In this document: in pieces, positions 11,654 to 44,317 of the stretch
How the letters are laid out: each line of letters opens with the position of its first letter
How positions within the stretch are numbered: the stretch's first letter is position 1
Assembly (NCBI GenBank): GCA_951406725.2
Contig: OX597825.1
Coordinates: 32,426,001 to 32,490,000 of the forward strand
Direction: 5' to 3'
Length of the DNA stretch: 64,000 nucleotides
Source: Octopus vulgaris
Lineage: Eukaryota
Made by a program: the position numbers and the translations under genes
The notes under the pieces: model-generated
What the model was told of the DNA's origin: nothing
Databases searched by the model: none
What the model saw: only the letters and a program-made list of their open reading frames with translations

Positions 11654-11694
11654 CTGTGGACTAGTTTCTGAGTTATTTTCCTTTATCAACATAG
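11654..11694 (-). ncRNA. Hammerhead-like motif with U3-A8 core (family C)
   Basis: Minus strand: ctatg TTGATAA aggaaaataactca GAAAC TA GTC cacag; stem I ctatg/cacag 4 of 5 bp, palindromic ACTAGT stem III, GUC triplet; stem II is weak. Confidence 0.55.
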
Positions 11695-12199
11695 AGTAGC
11701 TGCTTGGTCAGATGGCGTTGCTGATTTGACCGTTCAAACATATTGTTTTCAAAGTGACACACAACACTGATCTAAAAATAGAAATATAATTATTTCTAAA
11801 TCTCTGAAAGAGAGACATTCAGTAACAGTTTTTCTTTTAAAGTAAAGGCTATTACTGGATACCCTCGGTGCATACATATTAGCAGTTATTCATTACAGAA
11901 ATGGGTGGGGGCTTCGTTTTCTGATGCAGAACGTTGCAGATACTTTTAAACTAGTCAAAGAGGAGAAAATTTACCACCACCCATGTAACAACCTGGATCT
12001 TAGTCATAAACAAAGATTAAGGTGTGCAAATGCCATTTACTGAGCTATCCTCTGCATAGAAAACATTTGCCAGCGTGTATCACACATTTCAATGACACAC
12101 TTATAACCGTAAAAATATTGTTTTGATTGATTCATATGATGGTACGAAATTTTTAAAATGAAAGAAATTCTTCTATTATGTAATATCGTTTCACTTCTT

Positions 12200-12890
12200 T
12201 TGTATTGAAGCTAAAAATATGGAATAAAACTTAGAGACCAAGGCGAAAATAGGACCCCCTCAAAGTGGCTGTACTGTTTGTTTTGGGGAATCAAGACAAT
12301 TGACAAAAGGAACAAAGAAAGTAGTTGCCGTTGGTATTTTGATGGTATGAAGAGAATAAAATATTCTAAATGGCTTTTTAAAAATCTCTTAGTCAGTAGA
12401 GAAATCAGTACCCATGACTCATTACACAGCATCCGAGAATGACGGAATCAGTGGTGGACGAAGGTTTCCGCAAACCAACAAGAATTCTTGGAAGTGAATG
12501 GACTCTGCTAAATTTCCCAAGATGCCGGATGGGATGTTAAACCTGGTGACGAGTTTAAGTCTATTCCCCAAAATTATTATTTTTGTTCCATCACAGTTCA
12601 AGAATATAATAAAGTGAATCAAAAATAAATTGGGTGACGTAATCTTTCATCGGTGATAAAACTTGAGCTACATAGACCTGGCCTATTCATTCTTATCGAA
12701 CTTGATAATCTTATACTGTAGACAATCAGTCGCAGAAAGCAACTACTTCAGCAAAATATGAAGAACCTGTCCCGACCTGTTCAAGCAACGATGAGTTGAA
12801 TGATTTAGTATAAGACGTCGGTCACCCCAGAGATGCCACAGATCTCTTGGTGAATCCCGATTAAAGATAAAAATATTTCACATCTAGACG
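12200..12890 (+). pseudogene. Highly decayed Chapaev-like (CMC) DNA transposase remnant
   Basis: Frameshifted pieces read YGIKLRDQG..., RQLTKGTK, and FKQ.ELNDLV.DVG.P.DA..L...RL, recalling the GDQDK.WAPH..C..C and F.Q.ELNDLVRDLGL.K..AELLGSRL motifs of Chapaev3-type proteins (recall, not searched). Confidence 0.5.
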
Positions 12891-14935
12891 CCATTTTATT
12901 TTGGTAGAAATAACAGTTTAGATCATATTTCTATATAGTTAGGAAATCACAAAGACTGAAGGAAGTTGATTTTCCTGTATACGTCTGTTTATTTTTCTGT
13001 TTTCTTTCCGTATATTTCTTATGTTATATATCTTAACATTATTTCTAATCTCTTGTTTGTATTCTTTTATATGTTTTAGTGAGATTTCTAATGTCTTGTT
13101 TATCAGCTGGTCTACTGTTGAATTCTTTATGTATATTTACGAAATATGATGTACTGTACTGAAAACATTCTCGACGGGTGTTTTTTATTGTGTTCATAAG
13201 TGAAATAAAAAGTGATTTCTCAGAATTAAAACAATTTTAATGACAGTTATTTCGAAAACCCAAGGAATCATTTCAGTCCGATGATGCGACTAATGTATGT
13301 TCATTAATTGTGTCTCAAATCAATATAAATCGGTATAAAACAGCCATTTATAATTATATTATCCTTGAGGGGTGGTGGATATTATATTTTTTTTACACCT
13401 TCCCTGCAATCGTATCTGAATATATCAGGCAGTGATTGCTATGTAAGAAAACTTTTTAAGAAAAAATATGTATAGAAAATATGGTGTTATTATTACTAAC
13501 CATATTATTTTCCCTTCAGTTCATCGACGTTGTATGGTGCATTCATTCACTATACAGAATTTTATAGCCAGATAGACAGTTCTACAAATGACAATCTGTC
13601 AGTTTAAATATTTTGTAATGAGAAAATTTTCACAATATTTCTCTACTCTGCAGAGAGAAAGAGAATAATGTTTAAATCTATCATTGTATTTTTTTTAACA
13701 CAAATAAAATATATTTATTGCATTTTCAATAAATGCTACCTATAACAATTGACGACTTTTATACAATTTTGGCTTTAGTAATTGTTACTTTTTTATTGTT
13801 ATTTAATAATCTTCGCTGTCATTTTTTCTTTATTATCGAAATAACTTTTAACAATTCTTGTGTTTGACATTTACACTGTTTGTATGATTGTTTTATTATT
13901 TGACTTTTTGAAACATCGCCCTCACAAGCAACTTCTTCGATTTTTACAGCAAGTGTTGTTCAATCCTAAGAGATATGTTGTATAATAATGTATGTGCGTA
14001 CATATATGTATATATATATATGTATATATATATATATATATATATATATATATATATATACATACACACAGAAATATATATGTATGTGTATATCGACTTA
14101 AATACGTAAATATGAATATGCATATATATATATTTATAAATATATATATATATATATATATATATATATATATATATATATATATATATATATATATATA
14201 TATATATATATATATATATATATATATACATATATATATATTTATATATATATATATTATATATATATGTACTTATATATTCATACATCTATGCATATAT
14301 ATGCATGTATATATGTATGTATTACCACAAGACTTAATTGACATTAGAGGCAAGCTAGAAGAAACCACAAGTCTAATTTTCATAATCAATTTTGTCGTGT
14401 ATTTTGTTTTTTGTTTATCTCAACTGTCAAAAACTATTGACGTTCTGTTGCTCCTCTTTTCCTTACTCAATATTAACAACAACAACAACAAAAAATATTA
14501 CAAATAAACATCTAAATAATAATACCAAAAGGCAAGCGCGTTCATTTTGTCTTGACGATATGCCAGTCGTCTCAATTACTTCGCTTTTCTTCATGTTAGT
14601 TCACTCTCACACGTAGATAATCTGCGACTCGTCCATACACATGCGCGCCCGCGCCTCACATTAGTTTCTTTTCCTGCCTCGCAACATATTCTGTTGTTTC
14701 ATAATTCGTCCTACGTCTCTACGATGAAATAATGTCTATGGTAAGTTTATTTTTTTACCCTTTACTGGTTATCAGGCACTCGCCTACTAAACTGCAGCAC
14801 CGCTTTGATGAGGTTTCTGTTTGTCGGTTGATTATATCGGCTCCATACCAGTAGTTGGTCGAACTGCTAAGTTACGCGCATAAAAGGACACAGGTATAAC
14901 GACACAGGTTTTAGACTGACGTAAACATAAACATA

Positions 14936-15167
14936 GGCGGTGAGCTGGCAGAATCGTTAGCACGCCGGGCAAAATGCCTAGCGGTATTTCGTCAGCCGCT
15001 ACCTTCTGAGTTCAAATTCCGCCGAGGTCGACTTTGCCTTTCATCCTTTCGGGGTCGATTAAATAAATACCAGTTACGCACTAGGGTCGATATAATCAAC
15101 TTAATCTGTTTGTCTGTCCTTGTTTGTCCCTTCTGTGTTTAGCCCCTTGTGGGTAGTAAAGATATAA
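14936..15167 (+). mobile_element. Full-length tRNA-derived SINE family A with 15-bp TSD
   Basis: ggcggtgagctggcagaatcgttagc (A box) ... gagttcaaattcc (B box) ... ccccttgtgggtagtaaag; TSD gtaaacataaacata at 14921-14935 and 15168-15182. Confidence 0.92.
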
Positions 15168-15744
15168 GTAAACATAAACATAGGCGTGTATACACGCACA
15201 ATATATATATATATATATATATATATATATATATATATATATATATATATTATATGTGTGCCTGTATGTGAGCAGTGCGCGCGTATGCGGTGTGTGTGTG
15301 TGTGTGTGTGTGTGTCCCACGAGTTTCCACACAGTTTTTCTTCGATCAAACTTCAGTCACGGATTAATGTTCACCTCAAGGCTATAGCAGAAGAGATTTT
15401 TCCAAGACGTCGCATGGTTATTCAGTTTCAAATGATATATTAGTTAAGATACATTACGTTTCTTTTTAATATGAAAATATTTTAGATTTATCATAAGTTT
15501 CCTGCCAGTATTAACCATTTTACTCTAATTGTATCAAAAAACATTCTTGCCACCATTCACTAAACTCTGCAACTTAATGTTCACAAAAGCGCAGACTTAA
15601 ATCTCAAAACTGCAACAATTCAACTGACATGGGTAAAGTATAAGTTAGCGCAATGAGAGGCGATCTTGTTATAAGATTTACGTTGTTAATATCATGAAGA
15701 ATCAATGCTATGCAATCACATTTAACATTCCGTTACAAATTTAA

Positions 15745-43426: not shown

Positions 43427-43540
43427 TTGTGAAGGAAGAAGGTATTTTGGATAGCAAACAATCTGATGACGGCGGAGAAACCGAAACATCATCGCCGTCA
43501 TCAGAATGTTTGCTATCCAAAATACTTTCTTCCTTCACAA
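43427..43540. repeat. 114-bp hairpin folded back inside an HHR motif (family I)
   Basis: 48-bp arms; + strand CTGATGA (43463-43469) c gg-cggagaaa-cc GAAAC (43483-43487), followed immediately by the inverted arm. Confidence 0.8.
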
Positions 43541-43589
43541 GGCGATAAAAGTGTAAGCATGTAAAACTAAGTGACTAAAATAATATTGC

Positions 43590-44000
43590 AAATTTCTTTT
43601 GGGTACCCCCTCGTACGAGTCATTCGTGGCCTTCTTTCCTCGGTCAAGTACCAGAAGTCACGACCGTTTCGGACAGTTACACTTAATACGGTTCGATCTG
43701 GTTGCCTCCCAAAAAGTCTAGGCTAAGAGCATTAGACCCCTTTGTAAGAAAGCTAGCGAATGTGAACGGCAACAAAGACAATAAATGGAGAAAATGGTAC
43801 ACGAAAAGACAAAAAAAAAAAAAACTCCGGAAAATATGGAACTCTAGTACGAATACAAACAAAAAGAAAATAGCAACAGGTATCTTTCGACTGAGAACGA
43901 ATCAAATTGAGCTGGTGTGTATGAAGTGAAAGCCTAAAGGCAGGAACATAGGAGATTGACATAAGTGGTGTTGGCGTTCGGCAATCAGGCCAAGAAGGAA
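43590..44000 (+). mobile_element. Decayed RTE-like LINE 5' UTR and start of apurinic-like endonuclease
   Basis: ORF 43702-43929 contains KLRKIWNSST...RLRTNQIELVCMK, loosely like the L.I.TWNVR....I..L.E start of LINE APE domains. Confidence 0.35.
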
Positions 44001-44037
44001 AGATCATATTTTATATATATATATTTATATATATAAG

Positions 44038-44317
44038 TTGAAAATGCACTGAGAATAGTTAAATTTTTTTATCATATTTAAATATTTAACCGTTTTCACA
44101 GTTTACATTGATTTTCAAAAGTTGAGATAGAAAGACGTGGGTTATGCCGCAAATCTCTTGATTCTGAGATAGAAAGACGTGGATTATGCCGCAAGACAGT
44201 TGTGTCATAACCCATGTGTTTCTATCTCAACTTTTGAAAATCAGTGTAAACTATGAAACCGGTTAAATCTTTAAATGTTATTAAAAAAATTATGAAATAT
44301 TCTCAGAGCATATTCAA
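44038..44317. mobile_element. Fold-back element with a U3-A8 HHR-like motif in each arm (family J), abutting (TA)n
   Basis: Inverted arms ttgaaaatgcactgagaata... / ...tattctcagagcatattcaa; + strand TTGAAAA tcagtgtaaactat GAAACCGGTT at 44234-44264; mirror at 44085-44121; internal 30-bp direct duplication at 44123-44152 and 44165-44194. Confidence 0.75.

Follow-up and report, generated by a model that had tools for sequence, protein, structure and literature searches.

U3-A8 cores in predicted type I hammerhead ribozymes of Neptune-like Penelope elements and retrozyme-like repeats in the Octopus vulgaris genome

The window analysed here is a stretch of 64,000 nucleotides (nt) from Octopus vulgaris (assembly GCA_951406725.2, contig OX597825.1, positions 32,426,001 to 32,490,000) with a GC content of 34%, taken from a 2.8 Gb genome of 227 contigs that is rich in microsatellites. 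It harbors three dispersed repeats, each carrying a hammerhead-like motif with U3-A8 (TTGANAA) in place of the C3-G8 of the standard CUGANGA core. In the active fold, C3 and G8 form a Watson-Crick pair (PMC3884650), and U3-A8, which is known from several natural examples active in vitro, keeps this tertiary pair (PMC3088659). The three motifs very probably represent decayed type I hammerheads with a U3-A8 family core, located in two homologous families of Neptune-like Penelope elements (F2 and F3) and in a retrozyme-like repeat of about 360 nt (F1), and are predicted to self-cleave as dimers.

The F1 repeat (11514..11853, minus strand) corresponds to about one unit of a circularly permuted, retrozyme-like repeat of ~355 nt without an open reading frame (ORF); it is an old, solo copy, 73% identical over 356 nt to a tandem unit at another locus (L056). 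Its type I hammerhead (11653..11696, minus strand) comprises stem I (5' strand 11696-11690, 3' strand 11658-11653; six perfect pairs in the family copy L002), the core TTGATAA (11689-11683), a stem II that is weakened in the window copy (11682-11669; A·A at 10.1/11.1) and GAAAC-UA-GUC (11668-11659), with the predicted cut after 11659. The F2 repeat (30993..31381, plus strand) is the 5'-truncated 3' end of a Neptune-like Penelope element, made of the 3' untranslated region (UTR) and the pseudo-long terminal repeat (pseudo-LTR), and is 76% identical over 392 columns to a relative (L051) with remnants of a GIY-YIG ORF upstream. Its minimal hammerhead (31271..31304, plus strand) consists of the core TTGAAAA (31273-31279), a 4-bp stem II with A10.1-U11.1 (31280-31292) and GAAAC-CG-GUA (31293-31302; predicted cut after 31302), and a 3-nt deletion leaves stem I at 2 bp only. 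The F3 repeat (44191..44365, plus strand), assigned by 85% identity to L065 and by ORF linkage, is the 3' pseudo-LTR of a second Neptune-like Penelope family and forms the right arm of an inverted pair. Its minimal hammerhead (44232..44268, plus strand) contains the core TTGAAAA (44234-44240), stem II (44241-44254; U·U at 10.1/11.1 and one decay mismatch) and GAAAC-CG-GUU (44255-44264; predicted cut after 44264). The other, 5'-truncated 'mirror' arm (44031..44167, minus strand) has its core at 44118-44112 and has lost the stem III palindrome (AACGGT).

The three main cores lie where the initial annotation had placed them, and the mirror core that it mentioned is present as well. It had also described each as followed by a short hairpin, GAAAC, a palindromic stem III and GTH. 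Past each of the three main cores by 13-14 nt, we indeed found GAAAC, a 6-nt palindrome (ACTAGT in F1, ACCGGT in F2 and in F3) and the triplet GUC, GUA or GUU, a series that the mirror arm breaks at the palindrome. Of the three hairpins, that of F2 alone is whole (4 bp, -2.6 kcal/mol), whereas stem II of the F1 and F3 window copies contains mismatches (0.0 and -0.5 kcal/mol) even though family copies fold at -3.8 and -3.0 kcal/mol. Only one of the three window sites passes a strict hammerhead descriptor and, judging from their sequence, these solo or inverted, decayed copies are probably inactive. No hammerhead appears among the 150 of 325 rows listed from an Rfam search of the window, the listed rows being microsatellite-driven microRNA matches only, and the repeat searches of the window, including Tandem Repeats Finder, were dominated by microsatellites. 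Moreover, Rfam at the gathering score gave no hammerhead match in eight loci, one of them with C3-G8 (L237), and it misses these hammerheads regardless of the swap at positions 3 and 8.

All three sites belong to dispersed repeats, with 881 (F1), 2,488 (F2) and 842 (F3) first-look candidates, 40 of which were scored for each. Best-hit alignments (U3-A8 in 25/38, 33/38 and 34/36) are biased toward the query and were dropped; we used instead family patterns in which positions 3, 4, 7 and 8 were left free, and matches to these and to both genome-wide patterns below were counted by eye from the match listings. The F1 pattern gave 16 matches (10 U3-A8, four C3·A8, one U3·G8 and one A3·A8), and the F3 pattern gave 77 (69 U3-A8, three C3·A8, one U3·G8 and four others). 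For F2, with 539 matches, U3-A8 accounts for 97 of the 100 listed, together with two C3·A8 and one U3·G8. C3-G8 was found in none of the 16 F1, 100 listed F2 and 77 F3 matches. U3-A8 is the family state at all three sites and not a product of decay; the C3-G8 family consensus that the initial annotation had named as the outcome fatal to its claim did not emerge.

The same core is also the commonest among the matches listed for two genome-wide patterns. The pattern YTGANRA-N12-17-GAAACCGGT has 9,268 matches against 98 for a reversed-pattern control, and the first 100 listed include 89 U3-A8, with positions 3 and 8 paired in 97 and mismatched in three. A second pattern, of the type found in the retrozyme-like families R2, R3 and R4 described below, has 2,263 matches against none in the control; among 100 listed, 84 are U3-A8, nine C3-G8 (two loci), four U3·G8 (three loci, identical loop) and three C3·A8, that is, 93 paired and seven mismatched. 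These counts leave out the C3-G8 families whose stem III is a plain ACGT, which are common too. Position N7 may be A, C, U or G while the rest of the core is fixed, and positions 3 and 8 stay paired as the stems vary. These genome-wide tests are preferred to the window pattern (three matches against 0.00 in 100 shuffles), because the latter was fitted post hoc to its own sites. When arbitrary stretches of the genome, 380 kb in all, were scanned strictly, three matches were obtained (two C3-G8, one U3-A8) against 0.3 in shuffles, too few to give a genome-wide share.

Further hammerhead-like motifs were noticed along the way. In the window, four minimal C3-G8 motifs in which stem III is simply ACGT lie at 27224-27253 (plus strand), 30891-30920, 41958-41995 and 37860-37894 (all minus strand); three of them have a non-A at position 6 or an altered position 5. 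Canonical relatives exist elsewhere, and the four motifs likely belong to other Penelope families. Elsewhere in the genome, two more U3-A8 families with an ACCGGT stem III, one of them with G7, were found (G000:C1:3182057, 7828097 and 10723043; C1:4452490 and 17764791; L244 and L245). The short stretches inspected around them contained no ORF, and neither family is clearly homologous to the retrozyme units.

Long copies of F2 and F3 run upstream into ORF remnants, about 0.6-0.9 kb away, in which the linker C-X4-C-X2-C and a GIY-YIG region can be recognised. The F2 and F3 hammerheads are terminal-repeat (pseudo-LTR) hammerheads of homologous Penelope elements, and because both sit 3' of homologous GIY-YIG ORFs they count as one observation, which overturns for these two the earlier description as unrelated families. 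Both show 5' truncation and inverted copies, as in insertions of Penelope-like elements (PLEs), for which inverted truncated copies have been described (PMC8557442). A protein search retrieved the F3 group and another family, F4, which is young: many of its copies are near-identical, and frames of 776-847 aa have stayed open (Pfam RVT_1, E 7.6e-7). The F4 hammerhead combines U3-A8, C7, a perfect 6-bp stem I, ACCGGT and, as in F3, U·U at 10.1/11.1 (six motifs from five loci). F5 likewise has a U3-A8 hammerhead with U·U at 10.1/11.1, and F2b, whose ORF is 57% identical to that of F4, has U3-A8 and G10.1-C11.1 where F2 has A-U. Among the in-genome sequences, from which alone the protein tree was built (FastTree), median protein identity is 44% for F2-F4, 58% for F3-F4, 72% for F4-F5 and, between decayed copies, 33% for F2-F3. 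U3-A8 was kept across these diverged Penelope families while N7 and the stems changed. Since F2b, F4 and F5 also have U3-A8 with the same type of stem III, its presence in F2, F3 and F4 is most simply explained by one inherited change. The linker between reverse transcriptase (RT) and endonuclease, CX2-5CxxC, defines Neptune and is also described in Nematis (PMC8557442); its occurrence as C-X4-C-X2-C in the F2, F3 and F4 translations points to one or the other.

Additional features of F4 were observed in several copies (L178, minus strand, G000:C13:52243000-52249000; also L177, L179 and L191). Close to a T-rich run, the RT-endonuclease frame of 776-847 aa is overlapped by a 469-aa frame lying upstream of it, which suggests a frameshift; the upstream protein matches nothing in Pfam convincingly, and the hairpin after the T-run is only weak. 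The 3' UTR is more than 1.3 kb long and consists of degenerate microsatellite common to the copies.

F1 belongs to a different kind of element. No ORF was found in the copies examined, and the circularly permuted unit occurs head-to-tail, with a period of ~355, in L056. Its whole-unit homologues include the families R2, R3 and R4, forming a superfamily of ~360-nt ORF-less units. R2, with U3-A8, G10.1-C11.1, a 6-bp stem I, three cores at a period of 362 in L197 and many copies 99-100% identical across the core, is evidently a very young U3-A8 tandem family. R3 has U3-A8 in seven of eight motifs, recovered from seven of eight loci, and R4 has C3-G8 with a period of 359 and adjacent units 99% identical; both have G10.1-C11.1. 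The unit folds have z-scores of -6.6 (R2), -3.3 (R4) and -3.2 (L056), and -2.0 in the solo window copy. The superfamily shows the defining features of non-LTR retrozymes, namely a tandem ORF-less unit of 170-400 nt, one type I hammerhead in each and strong self-pairing. None of the listed runs that contain the R2 unit is recorded as RNA, and a 362-nt back-joint in contigs assembled from such runs fits a DNA tandem as well as a circular RNA.

Runs under four organism labels also yield assemblies of the R2 unit of L197 (G000:C16:13630180-13631330) that differ from it at no more than one position near the core, and six organism labels contain at least 0.88 of its words, suggesting very close species, very recent spread or transfer. 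In addition, each R2 unit in L197 contains a second TTGAAAA with a hairpin and GAAAC about 95 nt 5' of the core; its imperfect stem III, without a clear stem I, possibly reflects a degenerate second hammerhead.

The superfamily contains both paired states of the core, and their distribution was followed in a tree of retrozyme units with columns 3 and 8 removed (27 rows; L245 was dropped as non-homologous, being 36-46% identical to the 12 units compared). The C3-G8 family R4 is nested among U3-A8 units (support 100), one of which, L238, is 89% identical to it, implying a double change against the AT bias. In a set of 71 F1 copies gathered with two queries, a clade of 32 copies with a long stem III (support 98) includes 26 with C3-G8, whereas the 39 copies of the short-stem group comprise 24 U3-A8, eight C3·A8, five U3·G8, one C3-G8 and one A3·A8; the lineages adjoining the C3-G8 clade are mostly C3·A8. 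A single clade for all C3-G8 rows is rejected by the approximately unbiased (AU) test (p-AU 2.7e-38). Because the C3-G8 rows do not form one clade, at least two double changes are required whatever the root, and more than one switch of the core between U-A and C-G is likely inside the retrozyme superfamily. We do not rely on the association between positions 3 and 8 in the 70 F1 copies with C or U at 3 and A or G at 8 (p 2.6e-4), given that these copies are related and that two queries were used to collect them.

Across families, the type I core is present (N3-U4-G5-A6-N7-N8-A9 ... G12-A13-A14, A15.1-U16.1, H17, with 3 and 8 able to pair), and stems I and II surround it in family copies (stem I 3-6 bp and open, stem II 3-5 bp), weakened in those of the window. 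The closing pair G10.1-C11.1, which hammerheads conserve without depending on it, is found in R2, R3, R4 and F2b and is absent from F1 (A·A), F2 (A-U) and F3 to F5 (U·U). Changes in stem III keep the palindrome (ACCGGT, ACTAGT, ACGCGT, ACTGCAGT, ACCGCGGT, ACCATGGT), as would be expected for action as dimers, and the self-duplex of ACCGGT is predicted at -8.3 kcal/mol, a short palindrome that would suit dimers. Minimal PLE hammerheads with a short palindromic stem III are described as cleaving weakly and working as dimers (PMC4209133; PMC6765202). By analogy with the natural variants, the U3-A8 core likely still lets the RNA cut itself. In tandem transcripts, two stem III palindromes would pair to form a dimer hammerhead, which would cut after GUH and release unit-length RNA; that of the retrozymes would likely circularise and be copied back by the Penelope RT/endonuclease. 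U3-A8 would have been inherited once in the Neptune-like lineage, and U3-A8 and C3-G8 would have been exchanged at least twice in the retrozyme superfamily, likely via tolerated C3·A8 and U3·G8 intermediates. The proposal of the initial annotation that the swap reflects selected covariation rather than decay is supported, on the basis of the sequences compared, by the young near-identical U3-A8 families F4 and R2, by pairing at 3-8 while N7 and the stems vary, and by the double switches within one superfamily; it does not extend to three independent origins.

In its fullest form, our reading is that U3-A8 is the majority core of the currently amplifying Neptune-like elements and retrozymes, and that at least two crossings between U-A and C-G took place, via C3·A8 in F1 and via U3·G8 in R3/R4, each intermediate being active enough as a dimer to spread. 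We hold this fullest form to be about evenly poised between right and wrong. Several points weigh against the main reading set out above. The direction of change in F1 is not fixed by the AU test (p-AU 0.154). C3·A8 is in excess in F1 (4/16 against 5/177 in F2 and F3 together, p 0.003), and among short-stem F1 copies a TA-type stem III occurs in none of nine with C3 against 18 of 29 with U3 (p 0.001); because of this excess and the tie to one stem III background, C3·A8 in F1 looks inherited rather than decayed. Identical U3·G8 motifs recur at the three loci noted above (4/100 rows listed). Since mismatch states spread as lineages, 3-8 pairing is not strictly needed for spread; such pairing is favoured but not absolutely required. 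The window copies are decayed, and A·A in F1 and U·U in F3, F4 and F5 replace G-C at 10.1/11.1, U·U being the best tolerated mismatch and a described natural variant (PMC3088659). Metazoan PLE hammerheads are reported to be poor in vitro even as dimers (PMC4209133). On the protein side, the Pfam GIY-YIG match in L077 (E 1.6e-4, 22.3 bits) falls just under the curated cut-off of 22.6, Pfam found no GIY-YIG at E 0.01 in the whole F4 ORF, and the Neptune assignment is by linker motif only. Among the Penelope families found here, none with C3-G8 is linked to an ORF to serve as outgroup, so the origin of U3-A8 is not placed. Finally, AT-biased mutation, too, would turn C into U and G into A.

This mutational direction leads to the idea that the hammerheads are inactive passengers, the two transitions having been fixed in master copies of an AT-rich genome (window GC 34%) and spread by hitch-hiking, with U-A pairing coincidental. 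The spread of mismatch subfamilies would suit it, as would the report that some PLE clades amplify without canonical hammerheads (PMC8557442). Passengers would hardly account, however, for a core that is otherwise fixed while N7 is free, for the covariation of stems I-III between families with a protein identity of 44-72%, for the nesting of R4, which runs against the AT bias, or for the paired states in 97/100 and 93/100 of the matches listed, and we judge this improbable. Plain chance among AT-rich words has less still in its favour. Among the N-TGA-N-N-A classes of the window, T3/A8 (77 sites) is outnumbered by A/A alone, and the ~300-nt inverted structure at 44.0-44.4 kb could be taken for a miniature inverted-repeat transposable element (MITE) with terminal inverted repeats, but the genome-wide patterns exceed their controls (9,268 vs 98 and 2,263 vs 0), and in other copies the same arm runs upstream into the GIY-YIG ORF. 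The family counts and the ORF linkage rule this out, and its probability is close to nil.

How many times U3-A8 arose is a further question. No DNA similarity was detected between F1 and F2-F4 outside the motif, and the F2 and F3 pseudo-LTRs align poorly beyond the core, as three independent origins, one for each unrelated family, would predict; but the homologous ORFs in front of F2 and F3, and the U3-A8 state of F2b, F4 and F5 with the same type of stem III, make such recurrence hard to believe. The same lack of similarity beyond the motif speaks against a narrower version of our own reading, in which all three sites trace to a single U3-A8 origin, the retrozymes deriving from a U3-A8 Neptune-like pseudo-LTR and the C3-G8 retrozymes being reversions. 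In its favor, an ACCGGT stem III is common to both groups, U3-A8 is common in R2, R3 and basal F1 of the unit tree, and a preprint derives animal retrozymes from PLE pseudo-LTRs (10.64898/2026.07.22.740005). Yet the most distant unit sampled (L241) has C3-G8 and the F1 root is not settled by the AU test, and we regard this version as a tentative possibility rather than a favoured one. The preferred reading remains one inherited change in the Neptune-like lineage and repeated switching among the retrozymes.

Two other features of the window are long inverted repeats at 43420-43548 and 10190-10345, the latter containing the same motif in two mirror copies. Each has weak microRNA-model matches, and they are possibly inverted PLE-type insertions or MITEs.

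If our reading is true, a single animal genome contains about ten thousand hammerheads that CUGANGA descriptors cannot see and that Rfam did not find, among them those of F4, a young intact Penelope family, and of R2, a very young retrozyme family; ribozyme and retrozyme counts in such genomes would then be too low. The near-identical backgrounds with all four states at positions 3 and 8 (R4 and L238, 89% identical; the F1 subfamilies) would allow a direct test of how a mismatch valley is crossed, and the natural series bears on how much cleavage Penelope elements and retrozymes need to spread.

The swap itself is already published in natural hammerheads, and these are not a new ribozyme. A literature search, with most subscription journals outside its scope, returned neither U3-A8 hammerheads in cephalopods or retrozymes nor reversible switching or spread intermediates within a retrozyme family, and the available text of PMC7151607 and PMC6962438 contains nothing on these subjects. 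The closest known counterparts of the F2 and F3 motifs are the minimal type I hammerheads of PLE pseudo-LTRs, among them the U3-A8 variant of Cercyon elements in Schistosoma mansoni, with ~1,300 matches (Cervera and de la Peña 2014, PMC4209133). As described there, both lie in a pseudo-LTR 3' of an RT/GIY-YIG ORF, have a short stem I and a palindromic stem III, occur in inverted pairs close to each other and mostly as truncated solo copies, and carry the U3-A8 swap. In octopus, by contrast, every ORF-linked Neptune-like family found here (F2, F2b, F3, F4 and F5) has U3-A8, one of them being young and intact, and stem II has 4-6 bp and mostly opens with A-U or U·U rather than with G10.1-C11.1 and a 5' extra base. 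The F1 superfamily resembles the non-LTR retrozymes of metazoans (Cervera and de la Peña 2020, PMC7229834; Li et al. preprint) in that units of 350-390 nt without an ORF form head-to-tail arrays in a mollusc, each unit has a single type I hammerhead whose stem I is 6 bp long, and the RNA is strongly self-paired. Unlike those, it is known here from genomic DNA, with circular RNA only predicted, and its core is mostly U3-A8, with C3-G8, C3·A8 and U3·G8 lineages in one superfamily; the available text of PMC7229834 and of preprint 10.64898/2026.07.22.740005 has no such core variant and no mention of octopus. With the natural core variants of Perreault et al. (2011, PMC3088659), the octopus motifs share the U3-A8 covariation and U10.1·U11.1. 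The examples given there are rare and scattered, whereas here the genomic copies number on the order of ten thousand and their history of switching can be traced. What is new is the sheer number, together with a series of naturally occurring intermediates between the states of a catalytic tertiary pair.

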